Below are positions 3,461 to 53,620 of a stretch of DNA of 64,000 bases, in pieces. The stretch spans positions 20,778-84,777 of the forward strand of contig CAZHBS010000002.1 of assembly GCA_964530845.1 (NCBI GenBank), in the 5' to 3' direction. Within the stretch, counting starts at the first letter, position 1. The number at the start of each line of letters is the position of its first letter. This DNA is from an uncultured Muribaculaceae bacterium (GTDB lineage Bacteria > Bacillota_I > Bacilli_A > RF39 > UBA660). Below the pieces are notes generated by a model. That model made no database searches. It was given only the letters and a program-made list of their open reading frames with translations, and was not told the DNA's origin. A program made the position numbers and the translations under genes.

Positions 3461-4072
3461 CTATACTTGTTCTAATATTATTACTATTTGCTTTTCAGTG
3501 TTGTGCTTGCAAGTAATTAAAGTTAAAATTGTTTTGGATATATTTCTTTTAATTTCAACTTTTCCATTTTTATTTATGTCATAAATATTAACTACTTTAT
3601 AAGTATAAGTTTTATTTTTATAATCAATTGTTGCTTTATCATCAATTTCTAATTTATCAAGATTTCTAAAATAAGAAATTCCAGCATCACCAGAATGAGC
3701 AGCAAGTATTAAGTTACCTCCAACCGCATCAGGCATATTAGAACCTTTTATTATTTGAACATTATATTTAATGTTATTTAAATAACTAGACTCATCAACT
3801 AAACCTCTAACTAAATTAATTTTATTGATTTTAAGTACAGCAATATAATTAACTTTTTTGTCTTTACTTTGTACTCCATCTATACTAGTTTCAGTATTTT
3901 CTTCGTTTATTTCTTCTTTTGATAAATCTTCTTGATAAAATTCTTGAATTAATTTTTCATCTTGTTTGTTATCAAAATAATTAAATAGCAATTTATAATT
4001 GCTAACTATTATTGCAAAAAATATTAGCATAATTCCTACAATTATATATTTATTAAATTTTATTTTTTTCAT
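3461..4072 (-). CDS. Sortase-family transpeptidase (membrane-anchored)
   Basis: N-terminal TM segment, LAAHSG (catalytic His) and TLITC (catalytic Cys). No Arg occurs in the 15 residues after the Cys. Confidence 0.75.
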   Translation of the reverse strand: MKKIKFNKYIIVGIMLIFFAIIVSNYKLLFNYFDNKQDEKLIQEFYQEDLSKEEINEENTETSIDGVQSKDKKVNYIAVLKINKINLVRGLVDESSYLNNIKYNVQIIKGSNMPDAVGGNLILAAHSGDAGISYFRNLDKLEIDDKATIDYKNKTYTYKVVNIYDINKNGKVEIKRNISKTILTLITCKHNTEKQIVIILEQV

Positions 4073-4106
4073 AACTTATCCTTTTCTGCAAAATAAAGAT
4101 AGAATA

Positions 4107-4541
4107 CTAATCCTCATATTCTATCTCAATATAAAATTCTTGTGAATCAATATCACATTCATCATCTGTTGCAACTTTATCTTCATATTTTATTGATTCT
4201 CTATGAAGTTGTTTAAGTAAATTTATAATTTCTTCATCATCGTATCTATACTCGTAGCAAGAATCATTATTTCTAAAATAATCACCTAATACCTCATTAG
4301 GAATGTTCATTTCAGACTCTAATGATTTTCCATTTTCAAAATTAAATACTTTAATATATTTAATACTATTTATTTTCTTATTATCTTCTAATTCAAGTTC
4401 AACGAACTTATCACTAAGTTTATTATAAATTTCAGTTAATATAATTTTCTCTTTTCCACCATAAAACTTTTTATTATATATCATACTTACTTTCTCTAAT
4501 AAAATTAAATCATAAAAATTAATTGGTTTTCTTACCTTCAT
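4107..4541 (-). CDS. Hypothetical acidic 144-aa protein
   Basis: ORF only. Asp/Glu-rich, especially the C-terminus (DDECDIDSQEFYIEIEYED). Confidence 0.45.
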   Translation of the reverse strand: MKVRKPINFYDLILLEKVSMIYNKKFYGGKEKIILTEIYNKLSDKFVELELEDNKKINSIKYIKVFNFENGKSLESEMNIPNEVLGDYFRNNDSCYEYRYDDEEIINLLKQLHRESIKYEDKVATDDECDIDSQEFYIEIEYED

Positions 4542-4606
4542 AATTTGTCACCACACGAGCATGATACCATTCATTAAACAAAATAAAAAATGTACAATTT
4601 TTTATG

Positions 4607-7123
4607 TCACACATTTTTAATATCTTTTCCATGTCTAAATCCATAAATAATAGTAATTATACCAGCTATTCCAAATATTATTGCAATTATCACATGTAGC
4701 TTACCTTCACTCATATAAGTGTCAGGTACTTCTACTATTTGATTATCCTTCATAACTGATTTAACAATTTCTCCATCTTCTTTTATTTCAAAGAACATTT
4801 TATCAGGATTAATCTCCCAACCTTCAGGAGCTTCTTTTTCTAAAATATAGTACTTACCAATAGGAAGTCTATCTATTATGATTTTACCATTTTCATCAGT
4901 TACACCAGTAAAAATCAATTCATCATCTTCAGTATATATCTCCATCTTAGTATTTGGAAGTGGTTCACTAGTTGAAAAGTCTGTCTTAGTAAATTCAAGC
5001 TTTCCAGTACCTAAATGATTTTTTATTATAGTTGTATATTCAACTTTTTCTGTATATTGGTCTTTATACTTTAATTCAAATTCATATTTAGTTTTATCTA
5101 ATACATGTTCACCAACTGTTTCTATTTCTTGTAAATAATATTTACCCAAATGAAGATTATCAACTTTAATATTACCATCTTTATCAGTTAATACTTCTTT
5201 TACTAAATCACCTTTTTTATAAATTACTTTTCCAGTTCCATTAGTTATATTTTCATTAGCATATAATCCAATTTTAACACCTTCTAAGTCTATTTCTTTA
5301 TATTCATAACCATTTTCTTTAAGCTCTACTGTTTCACCTATCTTAGTAGCTTTAACAGTTCCTTTTACTTCTTTATTTTCAAATCTAACTTCAAATAAGA
5401 TTCCATATTCACTATCATTAATTAATTTTGAATCATCTCCAATAGTAAATTCTTTTGATTCTTTATTCCATAAATATTTATCAATTACTTGATCAACTTC
5501 TTCTAATTTATAATGACCACTTTCTAACGGATAAGGAGTAATAAATTCCCCATTTCTGTCTGTTTCAAAAACACAAACTTTTTGGCTTGTAGGATAAGTT
5601 ATATTTTGACATACATATTCATTTTTATCAGTATTTAGTATTTTAAATTTAATACCACTTCTTTTGATAACATTACCTGTTTCTGAATCAACTTTCACTA
5701 CTTTTAACTTTGCTTTAATTTCAGCATTCGCTATTACCTTTTTAACAACAGGCCCTACTTCTCTAACTTCAATAGTAAAATCATCAGCTTTTTCATGTCC
5801 AAAAGTTGAAGTTAACTGTTTTACTATATAAGTTCCATAAGGTAATTTGAATTTAATATTTCCTTGTGAATCTGCAGTTAATCTTCTTACTTCTTCTCCT
5901 TTATTATTATAAATTCCAAACACTACTCCTTCTTCTGGACTCATAAAACCTGTTTTGTCATTTGCATATACTTTAGTAAAATCAAAGTCTAAACTAATAA
6001 CTTTTTCAAATACTTGTACTTCAGGAAATAAGTTGTCAGGTGTTATTTCAAAATAATATTTATTTTTATCTAATTGGTATCCATTAGATGCTTTTTCTTC
6101 TAGTAAATAGAACTTCCCTAAACTTGGTAAATAATCAGATGTTGCTTTTCCATTCTTATCTGTTGTAACAGTTCCAACTTTAGTTCCATCATCTTTGTAA
6201 ATGCCATAAACTGCACCTTCAAGAGTAGCTTCTCCTTGTGGCTTATTTGTAAATGTCTCATCATCATATTTATTAGGAGTAACTGTACCACCTAATACTT
6301 TAATCTTCATAGGTTTTCTGATTGGGTCTATATTACCTCTTCTAACAACATTTTGACTATCTGTTGCATAATAAAGTCTGGTAGGCTCGCCATAACGATT
6401 ACCATTCTTATTTAGACTAAAAGTCATATCACCAACTTGAGTTGCAGTAATATTTAAACTATTCCCATTTATACTGATATTTCCTCCAACAACATTTTCT
6501 ACATTAAAACTAGATAATACATTATTGGAATCATTAATTGTAATTGTATTTCCAATTACCATTTCAGTTGGTAAATCAGTAAAATTTGGAGTAGTAGTAT
6601 GGCTATCAGCTAATCTATTAATTTCTGCCATTTCATTTGCTAATATTGAATCATTTCTTTGTCCTCCTGATGTTGTTGTAAAATAATTATCTACAGTTGG
6701 ATCAGCATATTTCCATATTAACATTTGAGTTGCTGGATACCACCTAATATCAGTATGGTCTATTCCATTCTCATTATATCCATACCCATAATAAGCAATT
6801 TTCTCAATTTTTTTCCAATTTTCATAACTTATATTAGTAACACTTGCCATATCTTCTGTAGTTACATTATAAGTGGAATCACTATTTATTTCTACAAATG
6901 GTTGTACACAATAAACAAAAGCACCATCACTATTTCTTTTAATCATCTTTGTTTGTTCCCATTTAGAACGTGATCCTTGTTTGTGCATATAGTAATAAGG
7001 TCCTCGAATATATTCATCAGCACTTATTTTATCTGTTGCTGCATTAACATTTTTAAGTCCTATCATTGAACCTACAAATGTTAAAGCTAATAAAAAAATC
7101 ATTCTTATTTTATTTTTAAACAT
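4607..7123 (-). CDS. Surface adhesin: thioester (TQXA) domain plus Cna-B/SpaA-type repeats and a C-terminal membrane anchor
   Basis: Signal peptide. VYCVQPF (Cys about aa 72) and PATQMLIW (Gln about aa 133) fit Cys-Gln thioester adhesins. Repeated G-YxLxExxAPxGY-like Cna-B modules. The C-terminus reads VPDTY + hydrophobic helix + basic tail. Confidence 0.85.
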   Translation of the reverse strand: MFKNKIRMIFLLALTFVGSMIGLKNVNAATDKISADEYIRGPYYYMHKQGSRSKWEQTKMIKRNSDGAFVYCVQPFVEINSDSTYNVTTEDMASVTNISYENWKKIEKIAYYGYGYNENGIDHTDIRWYPATQMLIWKYADPTVDNYFTTTSGGQRNDSILANEMAEINRLADSHTTTPNFTDLPTEMVIGNTITINDSNNVLSSFNVENVVGGNISINGNSLNITATQVGDMTFSLNKNGNRYGEPTRLYYATDSQNVVRRGNIDPIRKPMKIKVLGGTVTPNKYDDETFTNKPQGEATLEGAVYGIYKDDGTKVGTVTTDKNGKATSDYLPSLGKFYLLEEKASNGYQLDKNKYYFEITPDNLFPEVQVFEKVISLDFDFTKVYANDKTGFMSPEEGVVFGIYNNKGEEVRRLTADSQGNIKFKLPYGTYIVKQLTSTFGHEKADDFTIEVREVGPVVKKVIANAEIKAKLKVVKVDSETGNVIKRSGIKFKILNTDKNEYVCQNITYPTSQKVCVFETDRNGEFITPYPLESGHYKLEEVDQVIDKYLWNKESKEFTIGDDSKLINDSEYGILFEVRFENKEVKGTVKATKIGETVELKENGYEYKEIDLEGVKIGLYANENITNGTGKVIYKKGDLVKEVLTDKDGNIKVDNLHLGKYYLQEIETVGEHVLDKTKYEFELKYKDQYTEKVEYTTIIKNHLGTGKLEFTKTDFSTSEPLPNTKMEIYTEDDELIFTGVTDENGKIIIDRLPIGKYYILEKEAPEGWEINPDKMFFEIKEDGEIVKSVMKDNQIVEVPDTYMSEGKLHVIIAIIFGIAGIITIIYGFRHGKDIKNV

Positions 7124-49580: not shown

Positions 49581-49979
49581 TTACTTAGAAATATTTTTTA
49601 TTTCGCATCTTGGAATAATTCTAACATCTACTTCTTTATAACCAAGTATTTTACATTTTAAAAGTCTATGTAGCCCATCTAATATAACATATCTACCTTT
49701 ATTTTCCATAATGTCGATTGGGTAATTAATATCGGAATTCATTACTCTATTATATTGCTCACTATATTTTTCTTTATCATCTATAACCTGATTAGGTGTT
49801 AGATTATAATAATCATTACCATAATCCCAAAATGGAACATCAAAATGCCATTTCAAATCTTCAATACTTATTTTTGTTGTTGGATATTCTAACTTCCAAA
49901 CATCCTTTTCATCCCAATCAAAATCAAATCCATATTCTAATACACTTTGAGGGATATCTTTATTATCCAAATTAATCAC
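49581..49979 (-). CDS. ParB/sulfiredoxin-like nuclease-domain protein (small, stand-alone)
   Basis: GRYVILDGLHRLLKCKILG carries the DGxHR core of the ParB/Srx fold. Confidence 0.5.
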   Translation of the reverse strand: MINLDNKDIPQSVLEYGFDFDWDEKDVWKLEYPTTKISIEDLKWHFDVPFWDYGNDYYNLTPNQVIDDKEKYSEQYNRVMNSDINYPIDIMENKGRYVILDGLHRLLKCKILGYKEVDVRIIPRCEIKNISK

Positions 49980-50018
49980 CTATCTTTAATAACATTATAT
50001 TTAAGTTGTATATACGAA

Positions 50019-50864
50019 TTATTTATATGCAATCTTATTTACATCTCCTGATATCATTTGCCCACATGCTCCATTTACATCAGAACCATTAGTTTCATAA
50101 TACTCCACTTGCATACCATATTTTTTTAATTCTAATATAAATTCATTAACTCTTTTGCTTTCTGATAAATGACTTATATCTACCTTGTTGAATTTATTAA
50201 TTTTTATATATTCATCTTTACCAAGTAACTCAAATAATTTTTTAGCATCCTCAATGCTATCATTAACACCATCAAATAAAACATAATTCCATTCAACTTT
50301 TTTACCACTAATATCTTTATACTTTTTTACTACTTCTACTAAAGATATCAAATTATCGCTTATAGGCATTATTTTTTTTCTTTTTATCGAATCTGCTGAG
50401 TGAAGAGAAATTTCTAACTTAAAATTTATATTCTTTAAATCTTCTGCTAAACTCAAGATATATTTTTGATTAACTCCACACGTAGCTAATGCAAATTTAG
50501 AATTTTTATATTTTTCATTTAAGTAATTAAATGCTCTTATTAGATTTTCATAATTTAATAATGGCTCCCCAATTCCCATTGCACTAAATAAAATTGGTTT
50601 ATTATTATTTATATTCTCATTTTGAATAACATTTTCTATTTGAGAAACTATTTCTTCATATGTCAAATTACGCACAAAATTATTTCTAACTCCATTATAA
50701 CAAAATCTGCATCCCATATTACATCCGATTTGTGTTGAAAAACAAATTATGTTTTTATTACTATAATCTACATATGTAGTCTCAATTCTATACTCATCAT
50801 TAGTTTTTTGAATATACTTTCTACAAACACCATCTTTAGAGTGCATTATTTTAATTACTATCAT
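50019..50864 (-). CDS. Radical-SAM RlmN/Cfr-family RNA methyltransferase homologue lacking the N-terminal domain
   Basis: IICFSTQIGCNMGCRFC (the extra Cys plus CX3CX2C), MGIGEPLLNYENL, ISLHS, EWNYVLFDGVNDS and GACGQM all parallel RlmN/Cfr blocks. The protein is only 281 aa. Confidence 0.65.
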   Translation of the reverse strand: MIVIKIMHSKDGVCRKYIQKTNDEYRIETTYVDYSNKNIICFSTQIGCNMGCRFCYNGVRNNFVRNLTYEEIVSQIENVIQNENINNNKPILFSAMGIGEPLLNYENLIRAFNYLNEKYKNSKFALATCGVNQKYILSLAEDLKNINFKLEISLHSADSIKRKKIMPISDNLISLVEVVKKYKDISGKKVEWNYVLFDGVNDSIEDAKKLFELLGKDEYIKINKFNKVDISHLSESKRVNEFILELKKYGMQVEYYETNGSDVNGACGQMISGDVNKIAYK

Positions 50865-50880
50865 TTTTACTCAAATCCTT

Positions 50881-51366
50881 TTAATTCAACTTTTCAGAAT
50901 CTCCACGTTTTTCAGCTACAATTTTATTATATTTATCATATGATAAATATTCAATGTTTTCTTCTTTAATCCAATAACCAAATCTTCCTTTTACTATGTA
51001 AGATTTTGGTAATTTCTCAAATATTAAATCTTTAGTATTGGAAGCTTTTGCATCCTTTGCTAATGATGCTGTAATATGGGGTTTTTTTAATCTACTTGGA
51101 TCATGTTCTTCATAATTTATATAATATTGCATTATATCTATAGGAAGTTGTACTTCAAATCCACTATTATTTCCATCATAACCATAGCCAACTATTAATA
51201 CTTCTATTTCTTTACCAACCAGTTCATCAAATATTTCATTTTCTGATGGATGATATTTAAAAGTACAATGAATTTCATCATTAACAATTGGCAATTGAAA
51301 TTTTTCTAAAGAATGAATAAAATCTACTGTTTCTCCTTCAAAAAATATTCCCTCATAACTTAACAT
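50881..51366 (-). CDS. Hypothetical protein, possible 2H phosphoesterase fold
   Basis: Two H-x-T-x motifs (EIHCTFKY and KPHITASL) about 64 residues apart. Confidence 0.35.
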   Translation of the reverse strand: MLSYEGIFFEGETVDFIHSLEKFQLPIVNDEIHCTFKYHPSENEIFDELVGKEIEVLIVGYGYDGNNSGFEVQLPIDIMQYYINYEEHDPSRLKKPHITASLAKDAKASNTKDLIFEKLPKSYIVKGRFGYWIKEENIEYLSYDKYNKIVAEKRGDSEKLN

Positions 51367-51382
51367 AGGTTATACCTCATAA

Positions 51383-51808
51383 TTATAATTTATTATATTC
51401 TTGGTCTGTCACTGGTTCACACCATTCAGTAGAAGAATCTTCTCCAGGTATTTCCATAGCAATATGACTAAACCAAGAATCTTTTTTAGCACCATGCCAA
51501 TGTTTAACATTTGCAGGAATTACGATTACCTTTCCTGGTTCTAAACTAACAGCTTCCCTACCTTCTTCTTGATACCAACCACTTCCTGCAGTACATATTA
51601 GTAATTGTCCTCCACCTTTTGCGGCTTTATGAATATGCCAATTATTTCTACATCCAGGTTCAAAAGTTACATTAGCTAAAGATATTTTAGCATCATCTAT
51701 TTTAGCAAGTGGATTAAGATAAGAATTACCTATAAAATATTGGGCATAAGCATCATTAGGATTACCTAATCCAAATACATTTACTTTATCAAATTCTTCT
51801 CTATTCAT
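51383..51808 (-). CDS. Cupin-domain protein
   Basis: NVTFEPGCRNNWHIHKAAKGGGQLLICTAGSGWYQEEG. Confidence 0.8.
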   Translation of the reverse strand: MNREEFDKVNVFGLGNPNDAYAQYFIGNSYLNPLAKIDDAKISLANVTFEPGCRNNWHIHKAAKGGGQLLICTAGSGWYQEEGREAVSLEPGKVIVIPANVKHWHGAKKDSWFSHIAMEIPGEDSSTEWCEPVTDQEYNKL

Positions 51809-51854: not shown

Positions 51855-52121
51855 TCATCCTGTATAAAAGGCAAGTTGTGTAATCATCTCTACTACTTTT
51901 TCCTTTTTTAAACCATGCTTCTTACCTAAAACTAAATGTGATTTAACTTGAGGATATAATCCTTGTGCCATTAATGCTGATATAGTTATCATGCTTCTGT
52001 CTCTTAAAGATAGTTTATCTTCTCTACTCCAAATTTCTCCAAATAGAACATCATCATTTAATTCTGCAAACTTAGGAGCTAATATTCCCAAATTATCTCT
52101 CCCAGCTGTTTGTTTTTCCAT
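51855..52121 (-). CDS. Carboxymuconolactone decarboxylase (CMD)-family protein, cut short by an in-frame TGA
   Basis: AELNDDVLFGEIWSREDKLSLRDRSMITISAL...QLAFYTG*. The same frame continues AKAWSVFPMVEEVYKDE* to 51801. The start was trimmed to MEKQTAG. Confidence 0.7.
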   Translation of the reverse strand: MEKQTAGRDNLGILAPKFAELNDDVLFGEIWSREDKLSLRDRSMITISALMAQGLYPQVKSHLVLGKKHGLKKEKVVEMITQLAFYTG

Positions 52122-52200
52122 TGAATAATCATCCCTTACATTATAATAATACACCAGTGTCTAACACCTATGTCAATAATAAAAAAATAGATAATTAAAT

Positions 52201-52921: not shown

Positions 52922-53620
52922 CTACTTTATTACCCTATATTTAAGTTGTATATAAGAATTATCAAGCTTATTGCATTCAACTAACTCTAATGCTCTTAAT
53001 TTATTAAGTTCACTAGATTTTGTTATAGAAACACCATCAATTAAGGTTGAAGTATCCCTTCCACCAACTAATAATGGTGCTATTACTATATTTACATAAT
53101 CAATCAAATTTTCTCTTAAAAATAATCCATTAAGATTACCCCCTGATTGGATAGTTAAATTATTAATATTATATTTTTCATATAAATCTTCTAAAAGTAA
53201 GCCTAAATCTAACTCAGTATATTCCAATATAATCAAATTATCATAATTACTTTTTAAATTATATGCAACATGATTTTTATTAGTTGTTACAAGATATAAA
53301 GTCTTTACCCACCTACATAAATAATCTATTCCGTTCTCATTTAAATGAGGCTTATTATCTATTATAATAAAACTGCAAGGACTCTTAGCTGGAATATCAC
53401 TTCTATCATTAATACCAATTTTTTTCATAACTCTTCCTGTATTTAAAGAAAATAAATCAGTAGTCTGCTCTATATCATAATATTGTTGTAATCCTTCTTT
53501 TACTCCACTAATTTTACGCCAATCTTTATCAGAATCTAACTCATCACTATTACCACTACTAATCTTTCCATCTAATGACTCTAACATAAATAATGTTGTT
53601 TTTGGCTTATTCATACTCAC
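52922..53620 (-). CDS. RibD C-terminal / dihydrofolate-reductase-like protein
   Basis: TTLFMLESLDGKISSG and IQSGGNLNGLFLRENLIDYVNIVIAPLLVGG. Confidence 0.7.
   Translation of the reverse strand: MSMNKPKTTLFMLESLDGKISSGNSDELDSDKDWRKISGVKEGLQQYYDIEQTTDLFSLNTGRVMKKIGINDRSDIPAKSPCSFIIIDNKPHLNENGIDYLCRWVKTLYLVTTNKNHVAYNLKSNYDNLIILEYTELDLGLLLEDLYEKYNINNLTIQSGGNLNGLFLRENLIDYVNIVIAPLLVGGRDTSTLIDGVSITKSSELNKLRALELVECNKLDNSYIQLKYRVIK

Follow-up and report, generated by a model that had tools for sequence, protein, structure and literature searches.

A probable short sister clade of RlmN and Cfr among class A radical-SAM methylases, represented by a 281-residue protein of an uncultured RF39-lineage bacterium

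Introduction

We asked what a shortened relative of the RNA methylases RlmN and Cfr might be doing in the genome of an uncultured Muribaculaceae bacterium (GTDB lineage Bacteria; Bacillota_I; Bacilli_A; RF39; UBA660), and whether the two small genes next to it belong to the same system. The gene lies in a stretch of 64,000 nucleotides (GenBank assembly GCA_964530845.1, contig CAZHBS010000002.1, positions 20,778 to 84,777 of the forward strand), referred to here as the window and numbered from its first letter. It encodes a 281-residue radical S-adenosylmethionine (radical-SAM) protein and is flanked by a gene for a 161-residue protein upstream and one for a ParB/sulfiredoxin-like protein downstream. 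A first-pass annotation of the sequence had described these three co-directional open reading frames on the minus strand (161, 281 and 132 residues), all of which were recovered, and had proposed either an RNA modification or repair cassette or a Cfr-like resistance determinant. Judged from its sequence, the 281-residue gene instead quite probably encodes a functional enzyme from a short, uncharacterised clade within the class A radical-SAM methylases that is sister to RlmN and Cfr, and its neighbours are not its partners.

Among class A methylases, only the activities of RlmN and Cfr are well characterised, a third, that of MrmA, having been reported only recently. The class is defined by two conserved cysteines besides those of the CX3CX2C cluster motif (PMC9692996). 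According to a cryo-EM preprint of 2026 (10.64898/2026.02.27.707579), Cfr consists of an N-terminal HhH2 domain, a beta-sheet extension, a radical-SAM barrel and a C-terminal tail. The HhH2 domain carries a positive patch and docks where H90, H91 and H92 meet; it is described as crucial for Cfr and RlmN alike to bind rRNA (10.64898/2026.02.27.707579).

Gene status and catalytic residues

The gene and its key residues, as assigned by alignment, are:
50019..50864, minus strand: 281-residue putative class A radical-SAM methylase of the short RlmN/Cfr sister clade (TIGR00048, PDB matches, alignment, tree and dN/dS)
Key residues: C41, predicted resolving cysteine; C48, C52 and C55, predicted [4Fe-4S] cluster ligands; E28; C267, predicted methyl-carrier cysteine

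All of the RlmN/Cfr motif blocks reported by the first-pass annotation are present in the protein (IICFSTQ, CNMGCRFC, MGIGEPLLN, ISLHS and GACGQM), with the CX3CX2C motif starting at residue 48 compared with residue 108 in the genome's own RlmN. The N-terminal domain is missing, as had also been noticed. The RlmN model TIGR00048 matches over model positions 73-348 of 355 (184.1 bits, cut-off 290), so that about 70 N-terminal residues are absent, and a Pfam search found the generic Radical_SAM domain PF04055 alone (57 bits) and no PF21016 (RlmN_N, the N-terminal HhH2 RNA-binding domain). Scores against the Cfr models were 106.3 bits for NF000424 (cut-off 530) and 101.1 bits for TIGR04432 (cut-off 550). 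Matches in the PDB included RlmN (3RF9, E 2e-29) and Cfr (9P0P, E 4e-23).

As marks of a class A methylase we looked for CX3CX2C in the barrel, a resolving cysteine before the cluster and a methyl-carrier cysteine in the C-terminal tail, and the sequence contains the motif and both extra cysteines. C41 in IICFSTQ falls at the position of the resolving cysteine (Cfr C105, RlmN C118), whose mutation traps a covalent RNA adduct, while C267 in GACGQM aligns with Cfr C338, which we take to be the methyl-carrier cysteine, and with RlmN C355. The methyl carrier had initially been placed in IICFSTQ; by alignment the two roles have to be exchanged.

The short form is common to a large family. There were 1059 significant homologs, and the best 120 listed are almost all 273-289 residues long. 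In an alignment of 28 short-family sequences (46-83% identity) the start is nearly uniform and C41, C48, C52, C55, C267, E28 and the GxGEP and SLH motifs are invariant; C41 and C267 are likewise invariant in a set of 32 sequences. In a profile search of 1.84 billion representatives of 50%-identity clusters, about 80-90 of the best 150 clusters listed align from their first residues and thus represent short forms (ca. 183-424 bits). Full-length RlmN proteins, in which the match begins near residue 66-74, enter this list only from about 203 bits down.

An RlmN match that begins only at model position 73 would also suit a 5'-truncated remnant of the housekeeping rlmN, a pseudogene alternative that the first-pass annotation had named. 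This explanation has next to no probability. A search of the genome for a separate full-length rlmN, as had been recommended, found one on another contig (406.7 bits, above the cut-off of 290), to which the 281-residue protein is only 36% identical. The frame cannot be extended upstream because an in-frame TGA stands 9 nt before the ATG, and the DNA beyond it codes for the 161-residue protein in a different frame and holds no rlmN coding remnants. Homologs across many lineages have the same start, and dN/dS (the ratio of nonsynonymous to synonymous substitution rates) is 0.12-0.27 against four homologs, which indicates purifying selection. Lengthening of the frame through an alternative genetic code (TGA read as Trp) was considered and ruled out, since TGA terminates 8 of the 58 long open reading frames of the window and TGG is in normal use; code 11 applies.

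A full-length rlmN above the cut-off was present in each of the five other carrier genomes checked, six out of six when this genome is included. The 281-residue gene is therefore an accessory paralog of rlmN and not its replacement, and by its residues, start and substitution pattern it is intact, conserved and under selection, with all class A catalytic residues in place.

Phylogeny

A maximum-likelihood tree was calculated from 57 sequences comprising 32 short forms, 15 RlmN proteins (among them the ones encoded by this genome and its relatives), Cfr, Cfr(B), Cfr(C) and Cfr(D) sequences from plasmids with annotation, and the family of a third paralog described below. RlmN and Cfr together form a clade with support of 100/100 on a branch of length 1.19, within which the Cfr clade (100/99) is nested, and all short forms fall outside it. 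In an approximately unbiased (AU) test, a tree holding the short forms and Cfr together was rejected (p-AU 0.013); one in which the short forms are monophyletic was not (p 0.37). Taken together with the co-existence of rlmN, these results show that the short gene has a history of its own, neither replacing RlmN nor branching from Cfr. A literature search found no paper on the short clade.

The same genome contains a third RlmN/Cfr-like gene (C4:11798-12715; L003:1495-2478 in our locus numbering), which appears in the tree as a distant long branch. It encodes a very divergent protein of 327 residues that is also without the N-terminal domain and has CX3CX2C at residue 50; VVCVPT and SSCGEF take the place of the usual cysteine motifs, and there is an acidic C-terminal extension. 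The gene lies between LysR-type and AraC/GyrI-like regulators, is kept in at least five congeners and matches phrog_27142 with 72.7 bits. In a further genome that has both rlmN and a short gene (G062:C20:4294-5238), an RlmN-like match of 94.6 bits was seen inside a 677-residue frame, which may represent an additional, fused family.

Substrate contacts

The short family begins exactly at the beta-sheet extension; barrel and C-terminal tail are kept and the HhH2 domain is gone. We mapped the RNA-contact residues of Cfr listed in the preprint onto a 51-sequence alignment. The catalytic positions (Cfr E91, C105, C112, C116, C119 and C338) are invariant in the short family, whereas most of the mapped contacts to the A2503 U-turn and to phosphates are swapped for other residues that are themselves conserved within the family. 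The replacements (Cfr to short family) are S103 to I39, S187 to A125, N208 to K149, Y252 to E191, T325 to E254 and S328 to E257 (in 25 of 32 sequences); R184 is deleted and W101 has no counterpart. Conserved glutamates thus occupy three positions that contact RNA in Cfr, and the core has a median isoelectric point (pI) of 6.9, the corresponding region of RlmN and Cfr one of 8.1.

These substitutions indicate a remodelled substrate groove. Because the anchor domain is missing and most contacts are replaced by family-invariant residues, the enzyme probably does not target 23S A2503 held in the manner of RlmN and Cfr. The conserved residues make the ping-pong route of RlmN and Cfr the most likely chemistry. 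A first SAM molecule would methylate C267 and a second would be cleaved at the [4Fe-4S] cluster held by C48, C52 and C55. The resulting methylene radical would then add to an sp2 carbon of an adenine-type ring, with C41 resolving the covalent intermediate and the substrate being held differently from A2503 in Cfr and RlmN.

What the substrate might be can be narrowed down only tentatively. A different RNA site strikes us as about evenly poised between right and wrong, and an adenine nucleotide or other small molecule has roughly one chance in three. The short clade could represent a third kind of class A methylase in terms of function, using the two-cysteine chemistry of RlmN on a substrate that is neither ribosomal A2503 nor tRNA A37 (a different site in RNA, or else an adenine nucleotide or cofactor in free form), a proposal that we put forward as possible and not as the favoured outcome.

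Within our main interpretation, methylation of a free adenine nucleotide, a cofactor or another small molecule in place of RNA is a tentative sub-case. The loss of the RNA-docking domain and the near-neutral core pI would fit it, and a hint towards a nucleotide or cofactor comes from the acidic residues in the former RNA groove, with invariant glutamates at three positions, and from one metagenomic short RlmN-like domain fused to an HD plus HD_assoc phosphohydrolase of dGTPase type. However, the fusion is a singleton on one contig with a score at the edge of the family, the gene neighbourhoods indicate no metabolic pathway, and we know of no class A methylase that acts on small molecules.

Several short RlmN-like proteins carry extensions. 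In the fusion protein (P0434, 759 residues, from a single 8.9-kb contig) the RlmN-like domain with both catalytic cysteines accompanies the HD/HD_assoc domain. Other extended proteins are P0442 (451 residues), P0430 (398 residues, with pentapeptide repeats) and P0368 (414 residues).

Distribution and resistance

None of 36 congener genomes contains an ortholog of the 281-residue gene, rlmN at about 35% identity being the only match, and among 150 other genomes of the order (86 genera) there is a single ortholog (51% identity). The closest relatives, at 70-87% identity, come from metagenome-assembled genomes labelled Clostridia, Bacilli, Merdicola and Onthoplasma. This patchy distribution, together with closest relatives in genomes of other labels, suggests horizontal acquisition, probably jointly with the pair of CMD and cupin genes described below. 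The 161-residue gene was found in one of the 36 congeners, elsewhere in the genome, and the ParB/sulfiredoxin gene in none.

A mobile context was seen in Candidatus Merdicola (L077/L078:2067-3770), where the short methylase gene directly follows a large serine recombinase gene and precedes a RhuM-like one. A phage origin was considered and rejected: matches in PHROGs were generic only, and those in phage collections (30-36% identity) look like the rlmN type and are no closer than cellular RlmN.

An accessory, patchily distributed gene of the Cfr/RlmN superfamily with intact catalytic residues raises the question of antibiotic resistance. It might be an acquired ribosome-targeting methylase, either Cfr-like (m8A2503), as the first-pass annotation had suggested, or acting at another 23S position like MrmA. 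The latter offers a precedent as an RlmN-type enzyme of other specificity that is encoded on Tn6110 and confers resistance to erythromycin (as a macrolide) and streptogramin B (PMC11983580). Most of the results argue against this explanation, which we consider improbable. The protein lies outside the Cfr clade, with the tree joining it to Cfr rejected as described above, and reaches 106 bits where the Cfr cut-off is 530. The rRNA-anchoring domain is missing and most Cfr RNA contacts are changed, three of them to glutamate. MrmA, at about 40 kDa, is a full-length protein, unlike the one studied here. No resistance or mobility genes adjoin the 281-residue gene in the window, and a search of 72,556 plasmids matched only rlmN and cfr, with no homolog above 34% identity. 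We therefore no longer hold to the Cfr-like assignment, and for resistance surveillance the gene should not be flagged as cfr-like from similarity alone.

Neighbouring genes

The genes around the methylase are:
49581..49970, minus strand: stand-alone protein of predicted ParB/sulfiredoxin fold, 129 residues, with invariant ILDGLHRL (the listed open reading frame reaches GTG 49979, giving 132 residues at 49581-49979)
50881..51366, minus strand: 161-residue protein of predicted 2H phosphoesterase fold, CNPase-like (invariant H33-x-T35 and H97-x-T99, AlphaFold2 model, Foldseek)
51383..51808, minus strand: 141-residue cupin (Cupin_2 domain; NF049940 122.8 bits, under the cut-off of 140)
51855..52154, minus strand: CMD (AhpD-like) family gene (PF02627; homologs upstream of cupin and methylase in close relatives, loci L027 and L030)

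The stop of the 161-residue gene is 16 nt from the ATG of the methylase gene, as first described, and a gap of about 48 nt follows before the downstream gene. Such spacing could point to the RNA modification or repair cassette originally proposed, in which the 2H protein would heal 2',3'-cyclic phosphate ends, the radical-SAM enzyme would methylate RNA and the ParB/sulfiredoxin protein would bind a nucleotide or phosphorylate. The co-directional arrangement with no terminator detected between the genes, the predicted 2H fold and one methylase relative that adjoins the RNA 2'-phosphotransferase gene kptA would all be in keeping with this. However, close spacing is typical of the window, which is compact (ca. 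92% coding, ca. 25% GC) and has 66 of its 71 called genes on the minus strand. Because almost half of its same-strand junctions (29 of 62) are 20 nt or shorter, adjacency in this genome carries little information on function. Scanning this 25% GC DNA for promoters and terminators was uninformative, with 60 promoter-like sites where 57 were expected and no terminators.

We examined 32 loci with a methylase homolog (some 25 distinct ones), each including flanks of up to 6 kb, using tblastn with nine proteins of the window. None of the distinct loci holds a homolog of the 161- or the 129-residue protein within 6 kb, and the loci examined for these two families contain no radical-SAM gene. The only neighbours in common with other methylase loci are the genes for the CMD protein and the cupin, which recur just in the two lineages closest to this one (83% and 74% identity). 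In loci L027-L032 of close relatives, a cupin gene 69-74% identical lies directly upstream of the methylase gene with no 2H gene between them, so the 2H gene was inserted into, or lost from, a CMD-cupin-methylase string. When the neighbours of 21 methylase loci were clustered, no gene family was common beyond single lineages. PADLOC, used to look for a defence system, returned one weak generic radical-SAM match to its viperin model for the methylase and no match for the other two genes, and a defence role was rejected.

The trio is thus not a functional cassette, and the 2H-fold and ParB/sulfiredoxin-fold genes adjoin the methylase only in this genome. Co-conservation had been set beforehand as the observation on which the cassette would stand or fall, and with neither neighbour near the methylase in about 25 distinct loci we now regard that interpretation as very improbable.

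The genes next to other methylase relatives are varied and include an abutting flavin adenine dinucleotide (FAD) protein, a TrmH-like/rimM/trmD block, VTT-domain membrane proteins, KptA and a large serine recombinase. In one lineage (L005, L049 and L050), a 456-residue FAD-dependent oxidoreductase-like gene abuts the short methylase, its stop at 5000 and the methylase start at 5001 in L005 (gene at ca. 3630-5000). At L076:3193-3756, the short methylase adjoins kptA in divergent orientation.

Both small flanking genes belong to independent, widespread families. The 161-residue protein has homologs in 361 clusters. No match was found in Pfam, NCBIfam or PHROGs, nor with the family profile among PDB sequences. 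HCTF (H33/T35) and HITA (H97/T99) do not vary among 39 homologs and lie on strands 32-38 and 97-102 of an AlphaFold2 model (pLDDT 92). The top Foldseek matches of this model in the PDB are CNPase catalytic domains (probability 1.0, TMq 0.58-0.66, E ca. 1e-4). The 2H-like character recognised from the motifs in the first-pass annotation is therefore supported at the level of the predicted fold. A RibD_C-type reductase gene, 69% identical between the two, lies 1-2 kb upstream of the 161-residue family gene both here (52922-53620) and in GCA_002375205.1 (L033:2166-2858). The genes in between differ, and this may be residual synteny.

For the downstream protein, the ParB/sulfiredoxin fold had been proposed correctly, as far as models and profiles allow, while the length of 132 residues most likely has to be revised. 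A ribosome-binding site (AGGTGA) lies 5 nt upstream of TTG 49970, and most homologs are 129 residues long with matching N-termini, pointing to a start at that TTG. The protein has 430 homolog clusters from Bacilli, Lactococcus, candidate-phyla bacteria, DPANN archaea and others, some of them labelled ParB-like by the source databases, and ILDGLHRL is invariant in 37 homologs. Profile matches to SbnI are weak (E 3e-5 and 4e-4). An AlphaFold2 model (pLDDT 94) retrieved Noc, sulfiredoxin (Srx), SbnI, KorB and ParB from the PDB at a Foldseek probability of 0.99, and, from BFVD, small phage and giant-virus proteins with a ParB/Srx domain (TMq up to 0.67, E 1e-6). A ParB/Srx fold is thereby predicted. 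The matches to ParB, Noc and KorB span their N-terminal ParB/Srx domain only. Identity as a partition ParB was ruled out, as there is neither a helix-turn-helix nor a C-terminal dimerisation domain.

The CMD gene stops at a TGA (51855-51857) where its 74%-identical homolog has Trp (FYTG-TGA-AKAW compared with FYSGWPKAW), and beyond this codon the frame stays open as far as a TAG overlapping the start of the cupin gene. This TGA is a nonsense change or a sequencing error and no sign of code 4.

Discussion

Several points weigh against a short clade with its own substrate and without partners. To our knowledge, all characterised class A enzymes modify RNA at A2503 or A37, and the short methylase may have a redundant or condition-specific role like that of RlmN. 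The mapping of contact residues depends on an alignment at about 30% identity, read from sequence alone. Within this genome the trio is probably co-transcribed, no terminator having been found, and a lineage-specific functional link may exist despite the comparative data. A few relatives also adjoin RNA-related genes (TrmH-like, rimM and trmD at L008, KptA at L076). Such neighbours occur in about 3 of 27 neighbourhoods, which is around chance level by a rough estimate with no formal test.

Even so, a separate, partnerless short clade remains our preferred interpretation. The clade is diverse and widespread, with most of the members seen coming from gut anaerobes and candidate-phyla bacteria, and it appears to have kept the full catalytic apparatus while shedding the RNA anchor and remodelling the substrate groove. 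Identifying the substrate would widen what is known of this unusual methyl-synthase chemistry and would also show whether automatic labels such as '23S rRNA (adenine2503-C2)-methyltransferase' are wrong for short proteins.

Comparison with known systems

The two flanking proteins each resemble a known group in fold and differ from it in detail. Like CNPase and other members of the 2H superfamily, the 161-residue protein combines a pair of invariant H-x-T motifs, located on central strands, with a matching predicted fold, but it is much smaller (161 compared with ca. 210 residues), shares 14-16% identity and gives no sequence-profile match. The 129-residue protein has the DGxHR-type motif and predicted fold of stand-alone ParB/Srx proteins (Srx, the N-domain of SbnI/SerK, phage ParB/Srx proteins), with a Trp-rich N-terminal half that is specific to its family and matches nothing else.

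The 281-residue protein is most similar in sequence to RlmN (23S m2A2503 and tRNA m2A37; TIGR00048; PDB 3RF9/3RFA, 5HR6/5HR7 and 6FZ6), which gives its best match (184 bits, identity about 33-38%). The two have in common the beta-sheet extension, barrel and C-terminal tail as well as CX3CX2C, both catalytic cysteines, the glutamate at E28 and the GxGEP and SLH motifs. Unlike RlmN, the short protein has no HhH2 domain, does not reach the equivalog cut-off, branches outside RlmN+Cfr and occurs beside a true rlmN, and at most of its positions aligned to Cfr RNA contacts the residue is that of neither RlmN nor Cfr. With Cfr, Cfr(B), Cfr(C) and Cfr(D) (m8A2503; NF000424; PDB 9P0P), it shares the superfamily and the catalytic residues, yet identity is only 28-31%, the N-terminal anchor is missing, W101 is unmatched, R184 is deleted and the gene was not found on the plasmids searched. 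MrmA (Clostridioides difficile Tn6110/Tn7806; PMC11983580), compared here from its published description, differs in being a full-length protein of about 40 kDa on a conjugative transposon, and resembles the short methylase in being an accessory RlmN-type paralog that stands beside a housekeeping rlmN and is proposed to act on another adenine.

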